Assembly (NCBI GenBank): GCA_028691955.1 | Contig: JAQUYH010000005.1 | Location: forward strand, 14,777 to 78,776 | DNA length: 64,000 bases | Reading direction: 5' to 3' | DNA from: Bacilli bacterium | GTDB lineage: Bacteria > Bacillota_I > Bacilli_A > RF39 > UBA660 | In this document: positions 1,290 to 48,593 of the stretch, in pieces | Numbering within the stretch: the stretch's first letter is position 1 | Layout of the letters: every line of letters starts with the position of its first letter | Position numbers and translations under genes: made by a program | The notes under the pieces: generated by a model | Seen by the model: only the letters and a program-made list of their open reading frames with translations | Databases searched by the model: none | What the model was told of the DNA's origin: nothing

Positions 1290-1701
1290 TCATATTAATT
1301 CTTCTAATATGCCTCTCCTCATTAGAAAATTTAGTACTTAAAAACTTACTTACAAGCCCTTTCATCTTAAATAGAGAATCTTCCGCAGATAAAGCTATCA
1401 CATTTGCATTATTGTGATATCTTGCACAATAAGCATCATTTTTAGTATCCACCTTCGCACATCTAATACCTTTCACCTTATTAGCTGCTATACTCATACC
1501 TATGCCTGTACCACAGATTAAAATTCCTAAATCAATATTATCCATATCTTCACAAAGTTTAAAAGCAAACAATGGATAATCAACCGAATCTATAGAATCA
1601 GTCCCATAGTCAATACATTCAAATCCTTTTATATTTAAAAAGTTAATAATTTCGGTCTTTCTTTTAACACCTCTGTGATCAGAAGCTATTCCAATCTTCA
1701 T
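1264..1701 (-). CDS. rpiB: ribose-5-phosphate isomerase B (RpiB/LacAB family)
   Basis: KIGIASDHRG and CGTGIGMSIAANKVKGIRCA motifs. The start was moved to the ATG 9 nt after an AGGAGA RBS. Confidence 0.85.
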   Translation of the reverse strand: MKIGIASDHRGVKRKTEIINFLNIKGFECIDYGTDSIDSVDYPLFAFKLCEDMDNIDLGILICGTGIGMSIAANKVKGIRCAKVDTKNDAYCARYHNNANVIALSAEDSLFKMKGLVSKFLSTKFSNEERHIRRINMIDEYDNKL

Positions 1702-1815
1702 AAGCATCATTCTCCTATCTATATTTATTTTACAACAACTATACTTTCAAGTAAACATTTAAAAAACAACTTGGAAAACTTATATAAATAGTTTATAATA
1801 ACTATGGTGAATAAT

Positions 1816-3066
1816 ATGTATAAATTTATTGAAAACTTAAATGAAAAAGAATATGAAAATTTTGTTTACAACAGTGACAAAGCTCATTTCATGCAAAGTA
1901 AAGAATGGAGTCTTGTTCAAAAAGAGAAAAAATTTTCATCCCATCTAGTAGGAATTAAAAAAGACAATATTTTAATTGGGACAGCATTACTTTTAGAAAA
2001 AAAATTATTGAAACATTTTTCATATATTTATTGCCCAAGAGGATTTATAATTGACTACAGCAATAAAGCTGATGTTAAAGCTTTCACAAAAAAAATAAAG
2101 TTATTTTCTAAAAAAAGAAAAGCTATTTTCTTTAGGATTGATCCTGATATAAAACTTCAAAATTTAGATTCAGAAGGAAACAGTTTAAACAGTAATAATA
2201 ACGGATGGCTAGTAGACTATTTAAAAAAAATCGGATTCAAACACAAAGGTTTTAATAAAAATTTTGAAAACAGTCAACCGCGATATACATTTAGACTTAA
2301 CATAGAAAAAAATATAGACGAAATCTTTAAAGGATTCCATCCCACAACAAGAAAAATTCTAAATAAAGGAAATTTATATGATTTGAACATACAAAAAAAC
2401 AACATAGAAACATTTGATGGTTTTTACGAAACAATGTTAGAAACAGCCAAAAGAGAAAATATTAAACCTTCTAGTTTAGAATACTATAAAAATTTTTACA
2501 ATATATTACATAAAAACAATATGAGCGATCTATATACAATATCTGTTGACATCAACAATTTAAAAAAAATTTATAAAAATTTAGTTGCAGAAACAAAAAA
2601 AGATATAGAAAAACAGAAAGCAAATATCAATCAGGAAAAAGCACAAAAAATAATAAATGATTTAAACAATAAACTAGAAAAACAAAAAAAAGAATTATTA
2701 GTGATTGAAGATATCAAGGAAAGATATTTAACACTAGCTGCCATTATAACCGCCAAATACAAAGATAAAGTTTGGACTGTTCATGGTGGAAATCATAGCT
2801 TACTTAGAGAACTTAATGCTAACTATTTAATATACTATGAGATAATAAAAGACGCTAATAAAGACGGATATAAAATAATAGATTTCTTTGGTACAACAGG
2901 AAATCCTATAGAAGCAAATCCAATATACGGAATACATCTATTTAAAAAAAGACTAGGCGGCGAATATACTGAATTTATTGGAGAGTTTGACTATATAAAT
3001 CATAAAATACTATATTTCCTTTATATGAATTATATAAAATACAAGAAAAGAAAAAAGCAACGTTAA
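1816..3066 (+). CDS. FemAB-family peptidoglycan interpeptide-bridge aminoacyltransferase
   Basis: [11 protein letters not shown] near the N-terminus, a central coiled-coil insertion, and a C-terminal [11 protein letters not shown]-like block, all typical of FemX/MurM. GGTGA RBS before the ATG at 1816. Confidence 0.75.
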
Positions 3067-3266
3067 GCTGCTTTTTTTTCTAATTTTGCTTTGAACTTTT
3101 CTACATTTCCCTTTTTAGAAGTAGATAATTGTTGTCCTGTATAATGTGGATGACATTTATCACAAGTCTCTATATGTAATTCACTTTTATTAGATTTAAC
3201 TGTAAAAGTATTACCGCAAGCGCAAGTAACTTTAGTATCAACATACTTTGTTCCTATTTCTTTCAT
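3063..3266 (-). CDS. rpmE: 50S ribosomal protein L31
   Basis: [25 protein letters not shown]...[10 protein letters not shown], the Zn-ribbon form of L31. The start was trimmed to the MKE methionine. Confidence 0.9.
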
Positions 3267-3356: not shown

Positions 3357-4613
3357 TTAATAATCTTCTATTTGAATTTTAGCTCCAACCGCTCTTAACT
3401 TCTCCACAATGTTTTCGTACCCTCTTAAAACATGCTCAATTTCTTTAATATAAGTTACACCATTTGCTTTTAAAGCAGCAAGAACTAAGCAGGCTCCTGC
3501 TCTTAAATCTGTTGCTTCCACAACACATCCCGATAAATGACTTGGCCCATTTATTTTAATATTTCTGTTATCAATTTTTTCTATATTGGCTCCCATTGCA
3601 TTTAAAAATTCAATATTCTTAAATCTATTCTCATATATTGTTTCCTCTAAAATAGATATACCATCACATTGAGTAAGTAAAGTTGTTAAAGGCTGCTGCA
3701 AATCCGTAGCAAAACCAGGGTAACCCAAGGTCTTAACCCTTACAGGCTTTATTCTATCCTTGGCAGAAACCCCAACATAGTCAACACCTATATCCAATTT
3801 AAAACCCATTTCTTTTAACTTCAAAGTTAATGCATCAATATGTTCAGGAATAACATTACAAATTCTTAAATTATTACCTATTAAGGCACCAGCTATCAAA
3901 TAAGTTCCAGCCTCTATTCTATCAGGGATAACCTCAATATAGGCCTTACCTAAATAAGAAACTCCTTTTATTACTATCTCAGAAGTTCCAGCACCAGTAA
4001 TCTTAGCTCCCATATTATTAAGAAATGTTGCTATATTAACTATTTCAGGCTCCTTTGCAGCATTTTCTATAATGGTTGTGCCCTTAGCTTTTACAGCTAC
4101 AAGCATTGTATTAACTGTTGCACCAACACTAGGCATATCCAAATAAACATGACTTCCAATAAGCTCATCTGCTGTTATAATATATTTATTTCCATATTCT
4201 TCAACTAATGCCCCCATCGCCTTATACGCTTTTAAAGTTTGATCAATAGGCCTAGCTCCAATAGAGCAACCACCAGGAAAATACATTTCTACCTTTTTAA
4301 ATCTGCCTAGAAGTGCTGACATAAAATAATAAGAAGCCCTTAGCTTTTTACTTATTTCTTCAGGTATAGGCTTATTCTTAATGTTTTTACTATTAATTTC
4401 CATTATACCATCAGTTTCACCAACTTCAGCTTCTAAATACCTTAATATCTCATTTAAAGCATCAATATCTGAAATATCTGGGACATTATCAATTTTCACA
4501 ATGTCATCAGATAGTATAGCTGCTGGAATCAAAGCCACCGCACTATTTTTTGCACCACCTATTAATATATTTCCCGACAAAACATTATTTCCCTCTACAA
4601 TTATTTGCTTCAT
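3357..4613 (-). CDS. murA: UDP-N-acetylglucosamine 1-carboxyvinyltransferase
   Basis: 418 aa with GGAKNSAVALIPAAIL, GGCSIGARPID and TDLRAGA blocks. Confidence 0.95.
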   Translation of the reverse strand: MKQIIVEGNNVLSGNILIGGAKNSAVALIPAAILSDDIVKIDNVPDISDIDALNEILRYLEAEVGETDGIMEINSKNIKNKPIPEEISKKLRASYYFMSALLGRFKKVEMYFPGGCSIGARPIDQTLKAYKAMGALVEEYGNKYIITADELIGSHVYLDMPSVGATVNTMLVAVKAKGTTIIENAAKEPEIVNIATFLNNMGAKITGAGTSEIVIKGVSYLGKAYIEVIPDRIEAGTYLIAGALIGNNLRICNVIPEHIDALTLKLKEMGFKLDIGVDYVGVSAKDRIKPVRVKTLGYPGFATDLQQPLTTLLTQCDGISILEETIYENRFKNIEFLNAMGANIEKIDNRNIKINGPSHLSGCVVEATDLRAGACLVLAALKANGVTYIKEIEHVLRGYENIVEKLRAVGAKIQIEDY

Positions 4614-4629
4614 AACTCACCCCTTGTAA

Positions 4630-5481
4630 TTAACTCCTATTTTCACTACCCAATAATTTAATCTTAGCTATAACAGCTTCCTTTAATGCTGCTTCTCCAG
4701 ATTTTATAATCTTTCTAGGATCGTATACACTCTTATCTTGATCTAAAAATTTTCTAACCGCATTGCTCCAAACAATTTGCAACTCAGTATTAATATTTAG
4801 CTTGCAAATTCCACAAGAAATTGCTTTTCTTATTTTCTCATCATCAATTCCTGTTCCACCATGCAAAACCAGTGGAATATTTAATGATTCACTAATTTCC
4901 TTCATCGTTTCAAAGTTTAACTTAGGTTCACCTTTATAAAGACCATGAACACTTCCTAAAGCAGGAGCTAAAAAATCAATACCCGTAGCATTTACAAATT
5001 TAACAGCCTCTGATGTTGTCGTATATAATATGCTTTTCTCTTTACCGTCCTCAGTTCCGCCAACATGGCCAACCTCAGCTTCTACCGAAATATTATAATG
5101 CTTACAATAATTAACAACCTTTTTTGTAATATAAATATTGTCTTCAAAATCATGCATAGAAGCATCAATCATTACAGAACTAAAACCAGCTTTTACTGCC
5201 TCTTTACAAGAATCGTATGATGAGCCATGATCTAAATGAAGAGCCACTGGTATCTTTATATCCAATTCCTTAATCAAAGACTTAACAATACTACTTACCA
5301 CAGTATACCCGCCCATATACTTTACAGCCCCTTCTGAAACCCCAATAATCAAAGGACTATGAACACTATCGGCAGCTTCTAATATAAACCTTGTCCATTC
5401 CAAATTATTAATATTAAAATGAGGCACACAATAATGATTAATAAGCGCATCATTCAACATTTTTCTCATATTCACTAACAT
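4630..5481 (-). CDS. fba: class II fructose-1,6-bisphosphate aldolase
   Basis: MLNDAL..HYCVPHFNINNLEW, HLDHG and LVLHGGTG motifs. ATG start at 5481 after a GGTGA RBS. Confidence 0.9.
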   Translation of the reverse strand: MLVNMRKMLNDALINHYCVPHFNINNLEWTRFILEAADSVHSPLIIGVSEGAVKYMGGYTVVSSIVKSLIKELDIKIPVALHLDHGSSYDSCKEAVKAGFSSVMIDASMHDFEDNIYITKKVVNYCKHYNISVEAEVGHVGGTEDGKEKSILYTTTSEAVKFVNATGIDFLAPALGSVHGLYKGEPKLNFETMKEISESLNIPLVLHGGTGIDDEKIRKAISCGICKLNINTELQIVWSNAVRKFLDQDKSVYDPRKIIKSGEAALKEAVIAKIKLLGSENRS

Positions 5482-23344: not shown

Positions 23345-24706
23345 TTAACTGTTAATTCTAGCTACAATTTTATTTATTTCCATCTCAAGTTGTGGACTTA
23401 ATTTTACCTCTTTTTTTATTTTGTCAACAGAATGCATTACTGTTGTATGATCTTTTCCACCAAACTCTAATCCTATTTTAGGTAAAGTCTCTCCAAGAAC
23501 GACTCTACATATATACATAGCAATTTGTCTTGGCACCGCAATTTTAGCATTTCTTTTCTTGGATTTCATATCTTCCACTGATACATTATAATTAGCAGCA
23601 ACTAACTGCTCTACTTGTTCCATTTTAGTTTTAGCAATTATACTTTTAGTAAAAAAGTCTTTAAGTGCTTCCGTAACAACGTCCAGATCAATCTTATTTT
23701 GTCCCATAATGGTTGTAAATGCAACTACCCTGTTTATTGCTCCTTCAATTTTTCTAATATGTTCAGTACAAATACTAGCAATATATTCTTTAGCTTCATT
23801 TGTAAAATCACTATTTGGAAATTTGTCTTTAATTTTTTTATCAACAATAGCTAGTCTTAATTCAAAATCAGGAGGCATTATATCAACAGTAATTCCCCAG
23901 TTAAATCTTGTTCTGAGTCTCTCTTCCAATTTCTTTAAATCATCCGGAGATCTATCAGAAGTTATGACCATTTGTTTATTATTTGCATGTAATTCATTAA
24001 AAGTATTAAAAAATTCTTGTTGTGTCTTTGCTGCTATCTCTAGATATTGAATATCATCAATCATTAAAACATCAACAGAGCGATACTTATTTTTAAAATT
24101 ATCGACATTTTCAAAATTATTTTCCTCTTTATTCTTCTTATATAAATCAATAAAGTCATTAACAAATTGTTCACAAGTTACATATAATACTTTTTTATTT
24201 GAGTTTTCCACAATATAATTGCCAATCGCATGCATTAAATGCGTTTTACCTAGTCCACTTCTAGCATAAATAAAAAGGGGATTATACATTTTACCAGGTT
24301 GTTCAGCTATAGCTAAAGCCGTAGCTCGTGCAAATTTATTAGACTTTCCAACAATAAATGTACTAAAATTATAATCTGGAATCAAGTTTGAATTAAAATT
24401 ATTTTGAGCACTGACAGGAACGCCAATATCATCAGTATCAATTTTAACATTAGTAATAACTTCTTCTTCTAAAAGGTATTCAATTTTGAAATTAGAACCC
24501 GTTATTTCATTAAAAGTTTCCTCAACCATTTCGTTATAATTTTCTTTTAGATGTTTTTTATGTAGTACATCTGGAACTAATATTTTAATAGTATTTTCAT
24601 CAATTTCAATTAACCTAGCCTCTTTAAACCATGTTTCAAAAGTAATTTCAGAAAGATTTTTCTGCGTAATCTCTAAAAAATGGTTCCAAAGTACCTCTAT
24701 TTCCAT
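23345..24706 (-). CDS. dnaA: chromosomal replication initiator DnaA
   Basis: GLGKTHLMHAIGN Walker A, LMIDDIQYL, and the C-terminal DNA-binding block GGKDHTTVMHS. AGGTGA RBS before the ATG at 24706. Confidence 0.97.
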   Translation of the reverse strand: MEIEVLWNHFLEITQKNLSEITFETWFKEARLIEIDENTIKILVPDVLHKKHLKENYNEMVEETFNEITGSNFKIEYLLEEEVITNVKIDTDDIGVPVSAQNNFNSNLIPDYNFSTFIVGKSNKFARATALAIAEQPGKMYNPLFIYARSGLGKTHLMHAIGNYIVENSNKKVLYVTCEQFVNDFIDLYKKNKEENNFENVDNFKNKYRSVDVLMIDDIQYLEIAAKTQQEFFNTFNELHANNKQMVITSDRSPDDLKKLEERLRTRFNWGITVDIMPPDFELRLAIVDKKIKDKFPNSDFTNEAKEYIASICTEHIRKIEGAINRVVAFTTIMGQNKIDLDVVTEALKDFFTKSIIAKTKMEQVEQLVAANYNVSVEDMKSKKRNAKIAVPRQIAMYICRVVLGETLPKIGLEFGGKDHTTVMHSVDKIKKEVKLSPQLEMEINKIVARINS

Positions 24707-24770
24707 ATAATCACCTACAATCCTCACCAATTACCTCTATTTTACAATAAAAGCCAAAATAAATAAATAG

Positions 24771-24946
24771 TTTTCCACCATAAAATTATTTTTGTTTAAA
24801 ATATTTCAAACAAAGATAAAAATTATTAATTAACTTTAAATGTGGAAAAGTTTCAACACAAATCAATGTTTGTGTTAAAAGAAATACACATCATATGTAT
24901 AAAAGTAAATATTCCTTTATTTTATAAGAATAAATTCTGTGGAAAT
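24771..24946. promoter_or_regulatory. oriC part 1 (dnaA upstream): DnaA-box cluster
   Basis: TTTTCCACC at 24771-24779, TGTGGAAAA at 24841-24849 and TGTGGAAAT at 24938-24946. Each is within 1-2 mismatches of TTATCCACA or its complement. They sit in the divergent rpmH-dnaA spacer. Confidence 0.6.
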
Positions 24947-24963
24947 AAAAGTGAAAAAAATAA

Positions 24964-24992
24964 TTGACAAAATACTTATATACATATATAAT
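24964..24992 (+). promoter_or_regulatory. consensus sigma-A promoter for rpmH-rnpA
   Basis: TTGACA (24964-24969), exactly 17 nt of spacer, then TATAAT (24987-24992). Confidence 0.75.
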
Positions 24993-25032
24993 GTTAAAAG
25001 CACATGGGGAAATAGGCTCAGGAGGTGGAAAA

Positions 25033-25155
25033 ATGAAAAGAACATTTCAACCAAATAATAGGAGAAGATCTAAGAAACAAGGTTTCTTTGCTCGTATGAA
25101 AACAAAAATAATAAATAGTCGTCGTAAAAAAGGACGTAAAGTTTTATCACATTAA
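25033..25155 (+). CDS. rpmH: 50S ribosomal protein L34
   Basis: [22 protein letters not shown]...[11 protein letters not shown], with a GGAGGTGG RBS upstream. At 40 aa it is a few residues shorter than the 44-aa Bacillus L34. Confidence 0.92.
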
Positions 25156-25159
25156 TTAG

Positions 25160-25184
25160 CCACTGATTAAATCAGTGGTTTTTA
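25160..25184 (+). terminator. intrinsic terminator/attenuator after rpmH
   Basis: Hairpin CCACTGAT-taa-ATCAGTGG followed by TTTTT. Confidence 0.7.
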
Positions 25185-25246
25185 ATATTTATTTTTATAT
25201 TAATTATTATTAAAAAATATTATATAATATATAAGGATGGTGAAAT

Positions 25247-25597
25247 ATGAAAAAAACAAACATTTTGAAAGAAAATAAAGATTTTAAAAGAATAATGAAT
25301 TTGAATAATTGCTATAAAAACAAATATTATCTCATATTTATAGAAAAAAATGAGGTTATTGTTAACCATCATTTTGGAATATCAGTAAGCAAAAAATTAG
25401 GTAACGCCGTAGTAAGAAATAAGTTAAAACGACAAATTAAATCTATAATTGATGAAAAAACCTATCAAAATAACTTTAATTGTATTATAATATTAAGGAA
25501 AGACATATTAAACGCAAGTTTTGAAGAAAAAAAAGAAAACTTATATAATTTGTTGATGAAGGTGAATATAATAAAAGGAGATAAAAATGAAGAATAA
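25247..25597 (+). CDS. rnpA: ribonuclease P protein component
   Basis: 116 aa and basic, with an FGISVSKKLGNAVVRNKLKRQIK block. It lies downstream of rpmH. Confidence 0.9.
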   Translation: MKKTNILKENKDFKRIMNLNNCYKNKYYLIFIEKNEVIVNHHFGISVSKKLGNAVVRNKLKRQIKSIIDEKTYQNNFNCIIILRKDILNASFEEKKENLYNLLMKVNIIKGDKNEE

Positions 25598-43322: not shown

Positions 43323-43351
43323 AGCAGTTATCATATAGATAACTGCTTTTT
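43323..43351 (+). terminator. intrinsic terminator after eno
   Basis: Hairpin AGCAGTTATC-atata-GATAACTGCT plus a T-run. Confidence 0.8.
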
Positions 43352-43352
43352 G

Positions 43353-43381
43353 TTGAAAAAATGAAATATTAGTGTTATAAT
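43353..43381 (+). promoter_or_regulatory. near-consensus promoter with extended -10 for the DGR target gene
   Basis: TTGAAA (43353-43358), a 17-nt spacer ending in TGt, then TATAAT (43376-43381). GGGAGG RBS before the ATG at 43426. Confidence 0.65.
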
Positions 43382-43425: not shown

Positions 43426-45396
43426 ATGAAAAAAGGTTTTACTTTAATAGAACTTTTAGCAGTAATTGTAATATTAGCTATAATAGCTGTTATTGCAACT
43501 CCAATAATATTAGGAGTAATAGAAGAAACTAGAGCAAAAGCTTTTGATGTAGAATCTTCTAATATAGAAAAAGCGGCTGAATATTACTTAACTAAAGACT
43601 TAAGAGTGGAAGATATTCCAGAATATACAGAGTATTATATTAAAGTAAGTGATTTAGTGGGTTTCTTAGATCCTATAACAGATGATATAAAAGATAATTA
43701 TGTTGTAGTTAAAAAGAGTGGTAATAGTATAAGTTATTATTACACAGGACGTGATGATAATCCTTATACTTATTCTGATAATGAAACATTAAAAGAGATT
43801 ATAGAAAGTAATATTGGTTCGCATATAGCAAACAATGTAGTAGTAAATGGAACTACTGTTAATAAAGTAATAGGTACTAAAGCAGAAAAGAAAACAATTA
43901 AAAACTGGGTATACTATTCGGGACAATTATGGCAAGTATTAGAAACAACTGGTGATTATGTTAAACTAATAACAGCTAATTCTATAACTTCTATAGCTTA
44001 TGGCTCTAATTCAACCTGGAGTACATCATGGGTAAGAAAATGGTTAAATGAAATAGATAGTGAATCAGATGAAGATGGGATATACTATAATAATTTATCA
44101 AGAAGTGATTTATTATTAGATGGCAATTTCTGTTTAGATGAACCAACAGATATAACAGAGGAATCTTTTACTATAGGAACAGAAACAAGAAACAAAGTAA
44201 CATCATTTACGAAAATAAGTACATGCTCAAGTATATCAACCGATAAGATAGGATTAATGACATTTGAAGACTATGTATATGCATTAGATGGAACAGATGG
44301 TATAACAGGAGCTTTAGGAGGATCATTTATTGATGAAGATGAACTAGAGTGGACCATGACTAAATATACAGTAGGTGGAGTAACCAACAAGACATGGCAC
44401 ACTTATTACCTAAGTCCATCACATATAGAACATGGTTGGAATGGAACAACTGATTATGGAAAAGGCGTACGTCCTGTAATTTATTTATCAAGTGATTTAA
44501 TAGTAGAAAATAATAGTGATTCTGATTATGGACAAATAACTAATCCATATAGATTAGTAGGAGAACAAACAGCTGAAGAAAGTGATTTACTAAATACTGT
44601 GACAATAGGAAGTTATGTATATATAAGTGAAGAAAACAACCCAAACACAACAACAACAGAAACAGTAACAGACAATATTAGTTATACATATGATAAGACT
44701 AAAGTAAGATATAGAGTAATATCAATAAATGATAATGGAAGCATAAAACTACAAAGAGCCGATGTGTTAAGAAACTTGTCTTCAACAATAGCCATAAACT
44801 CAAATACATATATACCGTTTTATTACTATAACAATGGAGAAAACTCAACAAGTTGTGCTTACTTAAATAGTACATGGTATACCGGAGGATGTACAAATCA
44901 TAATTACTTTCAACCAACCCAAGGAAGCGGTGCTTATGCTTATACTGAAAGTGAAAATATAGGATACTTCTTAAATAATACAACTAATGGATATTATACA
45001 TGGCTCTCTGATGATGTAAAAGCAAACTTAGTAAATTATAATTGGAACTTAAATGTAAGCTCCAATGGTTATGATTATACAAGAAGTTTATTTAATACTG
45101 ATACTAGTGGAATATATCCATCTAGAATAAGTGATGGGATAGTTTCATCTTATGTAGGACTACCTTCATGGGGAGACATGTTTGCAGCAAATGATATAAA
45201 TACAAGTTATTGGCTTATAAACAGATGGTCAGGCTCATCTTCCAACGTCTCGTATGTGCACTCCGACGGTAATTCCAGCAGCATCTGCGCGTCTTATATC
45301 TGGTTTGGTGCGCGCCCAGTTATCAGTCTTACATCTAACACTCGTATAACAAGCGGAGAAGGTACAACTGATAGTCCATATATATTAAATTTTTGA
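43426..45396 (+). CDS. DGR target protein: prepilin-leader (type IV pilin-like) protein with two tandem lectin-like modules, C-terminal variable region
   Basis: The N-terminus MKKG/FTLIELLAVIVILAIIAVIATP is a prepilin cleavage/N-methylation motif with Glu at +5. The modules end in GKGVRPVIYLSS (about 44464) and FGARPVISLTS (VR). Confidence 0.88.
   Translation: MKKGFTLIELLAVIVILAIIAVIATPIILGVIEETRAKAFDVESSNIEKAAEYYLTKDLRVEDIPEYTEYYIKVSDLVGFLDPITDDIKDNYVVVKKSGNSISYYYTGRDDNPYTYSDNETLKEIIESNIGSHIANNVVVNGTTVNKVIGTKAEKKTIKNWVYYSGQLWQVLETTGDYVKLITANSITSIAYGSNSTWSTSWVRKWLNEIDSESDEDGIYYNNLSRSDLLLDGNFCLDEPTDITEESFTIGTETRNKVTSFTKISTCSSISTDKIGLMTFEDYVYALDGTDGITGALGGSFIDEDELEWTMTKYTVGGVTNKTWHTYYLSPSHIEHGWNGTTDYGKGVRPVIYLSSDLIVENNSDSDYGQITNPYRLVGEQTAEESDLLNTVTIGSYVYISEENNPNTTTTETVTDNISYTYDKTKVRYRVISINDNGSIKLQRADVLRNLSSTIAINSNTYIPFYYYNNGENSTSCAYLNSTWYTGGCTNHNYFQPTQGSGAYAYTESENIGYFLNNTTNGYYTWLSDDVKANLVNYNWNLNVSSNGYDYTRSLFNTDTSGIYPSRISDGIVSSYVGLPSWGDMFAANDINTSYWLINRWSGSSSNVSYVHSDGNSSSICASYIWFGARPVISLTSNTRITSGEGTTDSPYILNF
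45233..45319 (+). repeat. DGR variable repeat (VR)
   Basis: 75/87 identity to 47531-47617. All 12 differences lie opposite TR adenines. It encodes SSSNVSYVHSDGNSSSICASYIWFGARP. Confidence 0.95.
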
Positions 45397-45418
45397 ATAA
45401 TAACATATTGATATAATG

Positions 45419-45456
45419 CAAACCCAAAGGGTTTGTAACGGGCCAGACTTGGTCCG
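45419..45456 (+). other. two adjacent GC-rich hairpins just 3' of the target ORF
   Basis: CAAACCC-aaa-GGGTTTG (45419-45435) and CGGGCCA-gact-TGGTCCG (45439-45456; 7 bp including one G-T pair, 4-nt loop). They are conspicuously GC-rich for this genome. Confidence 0.6.
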
Positions 45457-45526: not shown

Positions 45527-45544
45527 GCAAGAAAGGAAATAAAA

Positions 45545-45973
45545 TTGAAATCTATAGATATATACTTTGAAATCAAAAAAAAATATGCCGATTACATAAT
45601 CATGTACAAAATGGGAAACTTTTACAACGTCTTTGGAGATGACAGTCATATTATAGGAGCTCTTTTGGGATATAAAATAAATAGTAACAATAATGTTTTA
45701 AAAGTAGGATTTCCACTAATATCTCAAGAAAAAGTTTTAAAAGTATTAAACAAAGAAAAAATCAATTACATAATTTTGGAAAAAGAAGATGGAATAATTA
45801 ATATCAAAATAAAAAAAAGATATATCACAAACTCATATAACTATTTTAGTAGAGATACACAGTCATTTTGTGAAATTAAAAATAGAATAGAAAAAATAAA
45901 CAGTAAATTAAATTCCAAAATTAATGAAAAAAATATTGATAATATATTAAAACAAATTGAGAACATAATATGA
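45545..45973 (+). CDS. small MutS-domain-I-like protein (DGR accessory ORF)
   Basis: YFEIKKKYADYIIMYKMGNFYNVFGDDSHIIGALLGYKI...KVGFPLISQEKVLKVLNKEKINYIILEK parallels the MutS mismatch-binding domain (Y.EIK..Y.D.IL.FR.GDFYE.F..DA......L.I.LT....AGVP.H....Y...L...G..VAI.EQ). It has a TTG start with an AAAGGAAA RBS, and its stop overlaps the avd start (ATGA). Confidence 0.65.
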   Translation: MKSIDIYFEIKKKYADYIIMYKMGNFYNVFGDDSHIIGALLGYKINSNNNVLKVGFPLISQEKVLKVLNKEKINYIILEKEDGIINIKIKKRYITNSYNYFSRDTQSFCEIKNRIEKINSKLNSKINEKNIDNILKQIENII

Positions 45974-46314
45974 AAGATAATCTAATAATAATAACTAGAA
46001 TCAAAAAAACAATACTAAAACTAGAAAAAATAATTGAAAATTTCAGTAGAACAGAGAATGTTTTAAAAGATAATATCAAAATAACAATGTATGAATTTTT
46101 AAAAAACGCTTATAAAGCAAATATTTCTAAAGATAGTACTAGATTAAATTATCAAAAAGAAATGATTGTAAATATTAAGATGTTAGATTTTTACATAAAC
46201 TGCTCGTACAACAAAAAAATGATAAGTCCTAAACAATACAATTTAATGGGGCAAAACTTTTTAGAAATTTTTTCAATGATTCAAGCATGGGTAAAAAGTG
46301 AAAAGACAAAATAA
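45970..46314 (+). CDS. avd: Avd-like four-helix-bundle accessory variability determinant
   Basis: 114 aa, basic and predicted all-helical, ending ..SPKQYNLMGQNFLEIFSMIQAWVKSEK like the Avd/S23-IVS family. It sits immediately 5' of the RT and overlaps it by 17 nt. Confidence 0.75.
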   Translation: MKDNLIIITRIKKTILKLEKIIENFSRTENVLKDNIKITMYEFLKNAYKANISKDSTRLNYQKEMIVNIKMLDFYINCSYNKKMISPKQYNLMGQNFLEIFSMIQAWVKSEKTK

Positions 46315-47515
46315 TTTATATGAAAAGATCGTTGATACAAGAAAAATATTAGATATTTACAATCGCCAAATAAAAAAATCTACTAAAAATAAAGAGAAAA
46401 TAGAACGATTTGAACAGTATTTAATGATAAATATTGCTAAAATAGAAACAATGTTAAAAAATAAAAATGTTTCATTTAATAAGTACAAAATATTTTTAAT
46501 AAGAGATCCTAAGTATAGAGTAATAATGAGTCAAAGTGTAGGAGATAAAATTATCAATCACTTAGTAGCAAAATATTTCCTTTTAGATATTTTTGAAAAA
46601 ATTTTAATAGATGAAAATGTTGCCACAAGAAAGGGAAAGGGCACAACTTATGGAATAAACCTTATAAAAAAATATATAAATGATTTAAAGAAGCAAAAAA
46701 AGCCAATATACTATTTAAAGTGCGATGTTAGCAAATATTTTTACAACATTGATCACAATACATTAAAAAAAATAATAAGCAAGAAAATTAAAGATAAAAG
46801 CGCAATAGAATTAATAAATAAAATAATAGATACTTTTTCAAGTAAATATGTAAATAAAGAAGTAAATGATGTATGTAATAAAGAAATAGAGTATGTAAAT
46901 AGTCTAAATATTATGGCAATAGAAAAACAGCAAAAAATCAAAGATTTAGAAAAAATTAAGGCTACTATAAAAGATAAAAAAGGCATACCAATTGGGGATA
47001 TGACAAGTCAAGCATTTGCTATAATATATTTAAATGAATTAGATCATTACATAAAAGAAAATTTGAAAATTAAATACTATGTACGTTATATGGATGATTT
47101 AATAATATTAAATAATAATAAAGAAAAATTAAAAGAAGATTTAAATAAAGTTAAAGAAAAAATAGAAGATGAGTATTTATTAGAATTAAATAATAAAACA
47201 CAAATAGGCATGTTAAAAAACGGCTTAGACTGTTTAGGATTTAGATTTATATTATCTAAAGACAAAATATACTTAAAAGTTCGTACTAAAACTAAGAAAA
47301 GGTTTAAAAAGAAAGTAAGAAAACTTTCTAATTTAATAATAAAAGGTAAAATATCAGAAAAGTCATATTATCAATTGTTAGCAAGTTATAAAGGTCATCT
47401 TATTAATGGAAATACATATAAATTATATTCTAGTGTAGCAAATAAAGGTAATGATAAAGTCAATTTAGGTGAAAACGTTTATATTGATAAATTTGGAGAA
47501 ATAATTAAGGGATAA
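46298..47515 (+). CDS. DGR-type reverse transcriptase
   Basis: RT motifs PKYRVIMSQSVGDKIINHLV (1/2), YYLKCDVSKYFYNIDH (A), GIPIGDMTSQAFAIIYLNELD (B, containing the DGR-typical IGxxxSQ), YVRYMDDLIIL (C, YMDD) and LDCLGFRF. GTG start. Confidence 0.92.
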   Translation: MKRQNNLYEKIVDTRKILDIYNRQIKKSTKNKEKIERFEQYLMINIAKIETMLKNKNVSFNKYKIFLIRDPKYRVIMSQSVGDKIINHLVAKYFLLDIFEKILIDENVATRKGKGTTYGINLIKKYINDLKKQKKPIYYLKCDVSKYFYNIDHNTLKKIISKKIKDKSAIELINKIIDTFSSKYVNKEVNDVCNKEIEYVNSLNIMAIEKQQKIKDLEKIKATIKDKKGIPIGDMTSQAFAIIYLNELDHYIKENLKIKYYVRYMDDLIILNNNKEKLKEDLNKVKEKIEDEYLLELNNKTQIGMLKNGLDCLGFRFILSKDKIYLKVRTKTKKRFKKKVRKLSNLIIKGKISEKSYYQLLASYKGHLINGNTYKLYSSVANKGNDKVNLGENVYIDKFGEIIKG

Positions 47516-47530
47516 AACTATATAATTTTT

Positions 47531-47617
47531 GCTCATCTTCCAACGTCTCGAATGTGAACAACAACGGTAATTCCAACAGCAACTACGCGTCTAATAACTG
47601 GAATGGTGCGCGCCCAG
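47531..47617 (+). repeat. DGR template repeat (TR)
   Basis: Starts 16 nt after the RT stop. In the VR frame it reads SSSNVSNVNNNGNSNSNYASNNWNGARP, with 11 AAY Asn codons. It holds 26 adenines, 12 of which are substituted in VR. Confidence 0.95.
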
Positions 47618-47843
47618 CTTTGATAAAAACTAACATTTTTAGGATCATGGTTCTAATTTATAAAAGCTTATCAAAACAAGTTTTAATCCCTCTCAAATCG
47701 AGAAAAATAAAGTATGTGAAAAATAATGCTAGTAAATTTATGAAAGTTTTATTTTTGAAAAGCAGATACATTAAGAAAGTTTTACTTCAAGTAAATCTTT
47801 TTTTATTTGTCCAAAAAGTATATAATATAAAAAGGAGGCAAAT

Positions 47844-48593
47844 ATGATAGATACACATTGTCATTTAACGCTAAAAGACTACCCAGATATTAATGAAGTA
47901 ATAAATAAAATGGGAAATAATAAGATAATAGTTAATGGAACAAATGACGAAGAAAATAAAAGAGTAATAGAGTTAATAAATAAATATCCTAATGTATATG
48001 GAGCTATAGGGATTCATCCCGAGGAAATTGATAAAATTACCACTAATTCATTTAAATATATAGAAGAAAATATAAATAATTCTAAAATAGTAGCCATTGG
48101 AGAAATTGGACTAGACTACTACTATGAGACAGACAAAGAAAAGCAAAAAGAAATATTTATAAAACAAATAGAATTAGCAAATAGATACAATAAAACAGTG
48201 GTAATACATAGTAGAGACGCTATAAAAGACACTATAGATATTTTAAATAAGCATAAAAACAAAAATATAAAACTAGATATACATTGTTATGCAGGAAGTG
48301 TCGAGAGTGCTAAAGAATTGATTAAACTAAACTCAATGTTTGGTATAGGTGGTATAGTAACCTTTAAAAACAGCAAAAACATTAAACAAATAGTAGAAGA
48401 AATAGATTTAAAATATCTTTTACTAGAAACAGACAGTCCCTATTTATCACCAGAGCCATATAGAGGTAAAAGAAACGAGCCTTACAACATACTATATGTC
48501 GCACAAAAAATAGCTGAAATAAAAAGCCTTCCTTTGGAAGAAGTTTTAAAGGTAACTACAGAGAATGCCATAAGACAATTTGACCTTGATTAG
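47844..48593 (+). CDS. tatD: TatD-family metal-dependent DNase/hydrolase (YabD)
   Basis: MIDTHCHL, GEIGLDY, VIHSRDA and LLETDSPYL motifs. Confidence 0.92.
   Translation: MIDTHCHLTLKDYPDINEVINKMGNNKIIVNGTNDEENKRVIELINKYPNVYGAIGIHPEEIDKITTNSFKYIEENINNSKIVAIGEIGLDYYYETDKEKQKEIFIKQIELANRYNKTVVIHSRDAIKDTIDILNKHKNKNIKLDIHCYAGSVESAKELIKLNSMFGIGGIVTFKNSKNIKQIVEEIDLKYLLLETDSPYLSPEPYRGKRNEPYNILYVAQKIAEIKSLPLEEVLKVTTENAIRQFDLD

Follow-up and report, generated by a model that had tools for sequence, protein, structure and literature searches.

A stand-alone MutS domain I protein encoded next to avd in a diversity-generating retroelement of a Bacilli bacterium

We analyzed a 64,000-nucleotide (nt) stretch of DNA from a Bacilli bacterium (contig JAQUYH010000005.1, positions 14,777 to 78,776; hereafter the window, with positions counted from its first nucleotide), which carries a diversity-generating retroelement (DGR). 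The cassette consists, in this order, of a prepilin-type target gene with the variable region (VR), hairpins, a small gene labeled msl, avd, the gene for the reverse transcriptase (RT) and the template repeat (TR). Our focus is msl, located on the forward strand at positions 45545-45973 and coding for 142 amino acids (aa), of which approximately residues 1-97 correspond to MutS domain I and residues 98-141 to a C-terminal helical hairpin. The evidence below makes it nearly certain that this open reading frame (ORF) encodes Msl, a stand-alone MutS domain I accessory protein of DGRs.

The msl gene begins with a TTG codon, and a Shine-Dalgarno-like sequence, AAAGGAAA (45532-45539, forward strand), is found 7 nt 5' of it. 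Since the only in-frame methionine codons correspond to residues 20 and 23, which lie within the domain, and since the family conserves residues that precede Met20 (K11, at 87-90%, as well as Y7 and Y14), the TTG start is credible. The nearest relative, P0002 from locus L001 of a JGI metagenome contig, is 56% identical and equal in length; it has GTG at the equivalent start, and L001 carries GAAAGGGA at the site equivalent to the ribosome-binding site. At its 3' end msl overlaps the avd start by ATGA (45970-45973), and avd in turn overlaps the RT gene by 17 nt; both overlaps recur in L001. On re-reading the sequence, the length, start codon, ribosome-binding site, peptide and overlaps reported in a first-pass annotation of this DNA all proved correct. 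That annotation also proposed that the three ORFs are made in fixed stoichiometry. Their start codons differ, however (TTG for msl, ATG for avd and GTG for the RT gene), which argues against equal stoichiometry and makes it no less likely that translation is coupled but uneven. Such a set of start codons would fit Avd being made in excess of Msl or RT; Avd of the Bordetella phage system forms a pentamer. The encoded Msl protein is basic, with an isoelectric point (pI) of 9.4.

The assignment of Msl to MutS domain I, which the first-pass annotation had made from the letters alone, is supported by both profile searches and structure comparison. The only Pfam match is PF01624 (MutS_I), which covers residues 5-77 with E=8.5e-11 and a score of 42.5 bits, well above the gathering score of 20.6. 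The NCBIfam MutS equivalog models align over their N-terminal 70 positions only, at 31-33 bits against cut-offs of 480-642, and the sole match among PHROGs is a weak one, to the N-terminal part of a profile of 853 positions that has no assigned function. When sequences of PDB structures were searched with phmmer, Taq MutS was matched with E=1.7e-4, GnFYnvFGdD of Msl being aligned over GDFYECFGED. Using hhalign, a family profile of 91 members was aligned with the N-terminus of E. coli MutS at 89.8% probability (columns 3-78 with residues 13-93). An AlphaFold (AF2) model based on the same number of aligned sequences (91) is confident (predicted local distance difference test score, pLDDT, 95.5; predicted template modeling score, pTM, 0.81); it was used in place of a single-sequence model, which was set aside because of its pLDDT of 42.6. 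The model has a beta-alpha core extending to approximately residue 91, followed by helices at residues 98-124 and 131-141. In a Foldseek search of the PDB with this model every one of the best 50 matches was to domain I, be it that of bacterial MutS, of MSH3 or of MSH6, with E-values down to 4e-7 over 92-107 aligned columns and a root-mean-square deviation of about 2 Å. In a library of viral structures, the model matched MutS proteins of giant viruses, along with a small number of short phage proteins described as 'MutS domain I'.

Thus, Msl shares its fold with domain I of MutS and MSH proteins (E. coli residues 1-115, Taq MutS, MSH6 and MSH3), superposing at about 2 Å over some 95-107 residues, and it keeps the G-x-F-Y motif with Phe at the stacking position as well as the D-D/A and G-[IVF]-P motifs. 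The differences are equally clear. Pfam and NCBIfam searches of the 142-aa protein revealed no match to MutS_II-IV (connector, core/lever and clamp) or to the ABC-type ATPase domain MutS_V, in agreement with the earlier reading that the connector, clamp and ATPase domains are missing. Msl therefore lacks domains II-V and with them the ATPase, sliding clamp and MutL signaling of MutS; the place of the connector domain is taken by the C-terminal helical hairpin. The Phe-x-Glu mismatch-recognition motif is incomplete. According to both the phmmer and hhalign alignments, F26 corresponds to F36 of E. coli MutS and F39 of Taq MutS, and N28 to E38 and E41, respectively, so that Phe is retained and Glu is replaced by Asn, exactly as first annotated. 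In MutS, Glu38 discriminates between mismatches and authorizes repair. It is unnecessary for mismatch binding as such, because E. coli MutS mutants E38A, E38Q and E38T were crystallized bound to G.T; the corresponding structures (1wbb, 1wbd and 1wb9) are among the Foldseek matches of Msl.

To define the family, we performed an exhaustive HMMER search of 1.84 billion representative sequences, counting clusters at 50% identity. At E<=1e-3 this search detected 750 clusters, of which 122 reached E<=1e-10. The top-ranking 150 clusters are all small proteins (72-322 aa, mostly 130-150 aa), and most of these 150 match all 142 positions, the C-terminal helices included. When a word-indexed search was used instead, 253 clusters were obtained at E<=1e-5, and PF01624 is the only domain in the best 120 of them. 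A search of species genomes with a two-sequence Msl alignment produced only two distant loci. The relatives come from metagenome-assembled genomes labeled Bacilli or Clostridia bacterium, and many of the contigs are derived from human-gut metagenomes.

Residue conservation was computed on 111 family representatives. F26, the counterpart of the stacking Phe, and F56 are both present in 100% of them, followed by G24 (99%), D33 and Y43 (97% each), P57 and Y98 (96% each), G55 (94%), and N96 and Y27 (90% each). The position equivalent to MutS Glu38 is occupied by E (26%), N (16%), H (15%) or R (10%). A similar picture emerged from 62 distinct Msl sequences that were sampled independently, from the RT-anchored loci: the stacking Phe occurs in 59 of the 60 sequences that could be aligned, and I, Y, H, N, V or D predominates at the +2 position. 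Judging by these alignments, the Msl family has retained the stacking wedge but not the mismatch-discriminating Glu. F56, Y43, N96-x-Y98 and K11 are invariant or nearly so in the family and have no counterpart in MutS; F56, Y43 and N96-x-Y98, together with the helical hairpin, mark a family-specific surface.

The genomic neighborhood of msl is as characteristic as its sequence. In all nine distinct family members that were inspected, the gene lies directly 5' of a bAvd gene and adjoins an RVT_1 gene. For a broader view, the associated RTs, which are 40-63% identical, were aligned, and the alignment was used in an RT-anchored survey that identified 80 further metagenome loci; these were annotated for msl, avd, RT and TR/VR using hidden Markov models and repeat search. 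Among 78 distinct loci, msl is present in 51 and absent in nine that have sufficient flanking sequence; its presence could not be determined in seven, and 11 are too truncated to show avd. Consequently, msl occurs in 51 of the 60 determinable loci of this RT clade. In 40 of the 49 loci in which the distance can be measured, msl ends between -11 and +10 nt from the avd start. Overall, the Msl family is dedicated to DGRs.

In some cassettes the association has become covalent. Four sequence variants (P0054 and P0265-P0267) found on 13 contigs represent a 245-aa Msl::Avd fusion, and the loci concerned have no separate avd. The fusion, located for example at 4082-4819 of L015 and 4883-5620 of L016, retains domain I and the N-x-Y motif; from the P0054 sequence, the C-terminal helical hairpin seems to have been swapped for a linker to Avd. 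In RT::Msl fusions a complete Msl module forms the C-terminus of the RT (P0268, 511 aa; L017, 1325-2293; L062, ORF 1538-3109), and these three cassettes have no msl 5' of avd. They resemble the three DGR RTs with a C-terminal MutS_I motif described by Wu et al. (PMC5758913); the module includes the C-terminal helices and the RTs belong to the same clade, the difference being that in the window Msl is a separate gene 5' of avd. Since Msl is naturally fused to both Avd and RT, it can be argued that it works physically with them, and these fusions are the strongest available evidence for this. On this basis, Msl is probably linked physically to the RT-Avd complex.

The arrangement is nevertheless not uniform. 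A second, convergent msl located 3' of the RT gene is present in L008/L009, the L091 group (including L092), L094 and L096 (7211-7639 of L008 and 6945-7385 of L091, both on the reverse strand; 2040-2528 of L096). These second copies are divergent, yet keep the G-x-F-Y, D-D-A and G-F-P motifs. L097 has msl in tandem (4274-4720 and 4695-5111), the first copy being devoid of the motifs, and in L039 and L049 msl is found only 3' of the RT gene.

Small MutS-like ORFs in DGR surveys, which the first-pass annotation had mentioned, have indeed been described. The MSL accessory gene defines 'Architecture D' of DGRs, found in 16 of 372 DGRs; it codes for 112-283 aa and occurs always with avd and never with HRDC (Wu et al., Nucleic Acids Res 2017/18, PMC5758913). 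Among Bacteroides, Msl is encoded by three of five DGRs, namely Bfr, Bth and Bun (Macadangdang et al., bioRxiv 10.1101/2024.11.15.621889). The gene in the window falls within the published size range, encodes MutS_I, resides in a DGR cassette with avd and without any HRDC match, and has DGR-linked relatives. As in the known cases, including those from Legionella and Bacteroides, a small MutS domain I protein is thus encoded in a cassette with avd. The window copy differs in its pI (9.4 versus the published family average of 7.2; PMC5758913), in the position of its TR 3' of the RT gene and in its prepilin-type target. These features, as well as the low-GC chromosome, are details of the lineage, and the window gene is one more member of the known Msl family, not a new kind of system. 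What appears to be new lies at the level of the family: some 750 clusters, the combination of domain I with a helical hairpin, a recognition site with invariant Phe and a free Glu position, the adjacency to avd, the fusions and the msl-less relatives.

The surrounding DGR looks real and intact, as far as can be told from its sequence, with RT, Avd, TR/VR with A-to-N differences, a GC-rich VR 3' end and an inverted repeat all present. The target gene (43426-45396, forward strand, as are all features of the cassette given here) codes for a 656-aa protein that begins with a prepilin-type cleavage/methylation motif (PF07963 N_methyl, 28 bits; TIGR02532) and bears the VR near its C-terminus. The VR (45233-45319, 87 nt) ends in the GC-rich GGTGCGCGCCCAG, which is common to the TR (47531-47617, 87 nt, 26 adenines). 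The two repeats are 86% identical, and all 12 mismatches (12/12) fall at TR adenines and at codon position 1 or 2. The avd gene (45970-46314) encodes 114 aa and matches PF22296 (bAvd, 43 bits), NF033474 (DivGenRetAVD) and phrog_3206 (Avd of DGR). The RT gene (46298-47515) encodes 405 aa matching RVT_1 (67 bits) and phrog_1423 (E=4e-88); its GTG start is supported by the N-terminal MKRxNNLY, which is conserved in the aligned RTs. A Pfam scan of the cassette ORFs gave no match to HRDC. A promoter-like site (43353-43381, 11/12 with TG) follows a terminator-like hairpin (43323-43347) 5' of the target gene; the promoter scan has little power in such AT-rich DNA, where it reported 39 sites versus 37 expected. 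No terminator-like site was found between the target gene and msl. Two further observations concern the RT and the TR. The window RT has an insertion of approximately 45 aa between finger and palm motifs (residues ~180-227), which is also seen in L001, L015 and P0268 and is missing from the RTs of about 315 aa in most other Msl-type cassettes. A GTG-initiated ORF at 47554-47847 (97 aa, reading NNNGNSNSNYASNNWNGARPA) begins within the TR and is a by-product of the latter rather than a gene.

Two GC-rich hairpins are found between the target stop codon and msl on the forward strand. Hairpin 1 (45417-45437) has the core AAACCC-AAA-GGGTTT; hairpin 2 (45439-45456) reads CGGGCCA-GACT-TGGTCCG and contains a G.T pair (G45442-T45453). 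G.T is a classic substrate of MutS. Both hairpins are kept in L001 (2672-2710), with a compensatory change in hairpin 1. Hairpin/cruciform elements are known 3' of DGR VRs (PMC3240598), and the window hairpins correspond to them. The G.T-containing type is present in 11 distinct loci (the window, L001, L003, L004, L006, L008, L010, L011, L012, L086 and L096), all of which have msl. In this type, the loop-proximal part is GGCC-loop-GGTC, and the G.T pair, whose G belongs to the 5' arm and is separated from the loop by 2-4 pairs, is invariant, whereas the pairs beside it covary (C-G, A-T or G-C). Because of the G.T pair, the hairpin would be stable on the sense strand only. A second type, located approximately 80-120 nt 3' of the VR, has the conserved and perfectly paired core AAAATGA-CTC[ATC]-TCATTTT, to which an outer stem that covaries is added. 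This type is found in L030, L041, L042, L046, L067, L070, L076 and L084, as well as in L028, L038, L052 and L058; Msl is encoded with it in L030, L042, L046, L067, L070, L076 and L084 and is missing in L028, L052 and L058. Recognition of the hairpin G.T by Msl was considered as a general rule and rejected, as the perfectly paired type serves DGRs both with and without Msl. The occurrence of this second type on both sides shows that the hairpin type follows the RT/Avd lineage and not Msl, which leaves the putative link between G.T and Msl as a curiosity of one sublineage.

The window represents a chromosomal and not a phage context, with 28.5% GC and a Bacillota-like origin region. The genes dnaA, dnaN, gyrB and gyrA are on the reverse strand, and yidC, mnmG, parB, uvrB, a whiA-like gene and the enolase gene on the forward strand. 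The origin region spans 23345-25587; the sign of the GC skew switches near 24 kb, and oriC was placed at approximately 24.7-25.6 kb. ORFs of at least 600 aa in the window code for Mfd, GyrA, GyrB, MnmG, UvrB, FtsH and the DGR target. Some 18 kb separate oriC from the start of the DGR target, which points away from it. According to a 2026 study of reconstituted DGRs, retrohoming is highest near oriC when the target points away, an orientation in which the lagging-strand template is the strand complementary to the cDNA (PMC12875486). By these results, the position and orientation of the target in the window represent a geometry favored for retrohoming.

What might Msl do in such a setting? Deletion of mutS raised the mutagenesis by the Bacteroides Bov DGR 5-10 fold, in an all-or-nothing manner (bioRxiv 10.1101/2024.11.15.621889), indicating that host mismatch repair (MMR) opposes DGRs. 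A 2026 preprint points to 'many MutS-like homologs' in DGRs as a rationale for suppressing MMR (10.64898/2026.07.21.739853), and DGR engineering in E. coli employs either mutS deletion or dominant-negative MutL. The explanation that we find best overall, and to which we give about an even chance, is that Msl is an optional subunit of RT-Avd with affinity for duplex that is mismatched or distorted, and that it shields the cDNA:target heteroduplex locally against the MutS of the host. Msl would be translated together with Avd and RT and join their ribonucleoprotein as an optional subunit, and its invariant Phe (MutS Phe36) would stack on bases as a wedge wherever the duplex is mismatched or distorted. 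The mutagenized cDNA would pair with the VR strand that is the lagging-strand template near oriC, giving a duplex with many mismatches at A sites. Brought in cis by RT-Avd, Msl would then occupy or stabilize this heteroduplex and deny it to host MutS; lacking the ATPase and MutL-recruiting parts, it could not trigger excision by binding. The outcome would be a higher yield of retrohoming without turning the whole genome into a mutator. The shielding of the heteroduplex as a specific mechanism is plausible, although we would give it somewhat less than an even chance. A more tentative idea still is that Msl is a cis-acting antagonist of MMR carried by the retroelement and working at the fork, for which, in the sublineage of the window, the hairpin G.T might be a docking site. 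Engineered suppression of MMR (mutS deletion or dominant-negative MutL E32K), as used in oligo recombineering and in synthetic DGR systems, is similar by functional analogy only, in that it removes the rejection of a mismatched single-strand donor by MutS at the fork. There, repair is switched off genome-wide, whereas the action of Msl, itself a product of the element, would be local.

Several observations weigh against this explanation. Nine of the 60 determinable DGRs of the RT clade (L028, L034, L038, L048, L052, L058, L060, L063 and L074) have avd and no msl. A search of the nine loci for msl remnants, with all filters off, returned nothing but noise at E<=10. TR/VR pairs were nevertheless found in seven of the nine, and in six of these the differences are cleanly adenine-specific (10/10 to 21/21); in L048 the pair is weak (4/4) and distant. 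Since msl-less relatives still show adenine-specific TR/VR differences, Msl is frequent in the RT clade but optional, and not core to retrohoming. The first-pass annotation had named absence of the ORF from otherwise intact orthologous DGRs as a sign that its proposal was wrong; such absence is real for this minority, which leaves the MutS_I identity standing and restricts Msl to an optional role. The sole correlation in the literature points in the opposite direction: among the Bacteroides DGRs, the three that encode Msl have low activity and the two without it are constitutively active (n=5), a difference that the authors ascribe to transcription (bioRxiv 10.1101/2024.11.15.621889). In the literature on DGR accessory proteins we found no experiment on any Msl protein, and neither mutS nor mutL was found within the 64-kb window. 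Finally, a lone domain I devoid of the MutS clamp may bind DNA weakly, and the invariant Phe could equally serve the binding of an RNA:DNA hybrid or a DNA hairpin.

The last possibility leads to a different explanation, in which Msl handles nucleic acids before integration, either by holding the TR-RNA:cDNA hybrid with its A:N mispairs, which would let RT extend beyond its own misincorporations, or by docking the RT-Avd-cDNA complex on the VR-side hairpins. The fusions with RT and Avd would put Msl inside the reverse-transcribing complex, and the loss of Glu fits a ligand other than a canonical DNA mismatch. The docking variant could also account for the G.T pair, which stays invariant in the hairpins of 11 Msl-type loci while its neighbors covary, in a hairpin that is stable only on the sense strand, that is, the strand paired by the cDNA. 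However, as described above, the link to the hairpin is not general, its type tracking the RT/Avd lineage and not Msl. The RT-Avd of the Bordetella phage performs adenine mutagenesis without Msl. Msl is absent from most DGRs (PMC5758913), and msl-less relatives of the window DGR diversify normally. We therefore regard a role before integration as rather unlikely, although it is the most serious of the alternatives.

It might also be argued that Msl acts on host proteins, as a decoy or adaptor for MutS or a MutS partner, or as a brake on retrohoming. F56, Y43, N96-x-Y98, K11 and the helical hairpin could form a protein-binding surface, and a brake would be in line with the low activity of the Msl-encoding Bacteroides DGRs. 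However, the contacts of MutS to MutL and the clamp map outside domain I, and contact with nucleic acid is what one would expect from an invariant Phe located where MutS stacks on DNA. Given the fusions, docking on Avd or RT is a simpler explanation of the surface, and the activity gap in Bacteroides was attributed to transcription. An action on host proteins is accordingly improbable in our view. The least likely explanation of all is that the ORF is a decaying remnant without present function. The non-ATG start, the absence of msl from some related DGRs and the loss of the 'catalytic' Glu could be read in this way. Against this, the ORF is intact and its model confident (pLDDT 95.5), the 56%-identical orthologue agrees with it in length, in the position of the start and in the overlap with avd, and hundreds of family clusters keep identical invariant residues. 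These facts make decay very hard to accept.

Of the explanations considered, local protection of the heteroduplex by an RT-Avd-associated Msl bears on a broader issue, namely the integration of DGR cDNA and the escape from repair of a heteroduplex carrying at least a dozen mismatches. The window gene adds one example to a known family; the family-level facts, namely the invariant Phe, the free Glu position, the fusions and the optional occurrence of msl, sharpen the hypothesis and do not prove it. If Msl does act locally, it could be a useful addition to DGR- or retron-based directed evolution and might replace the genome-wide inactivation of MMR. For the elements themselves, a MutS domain I that they encode and that travels with Avd and RT is an obvious candidate answer to mismatch repair.

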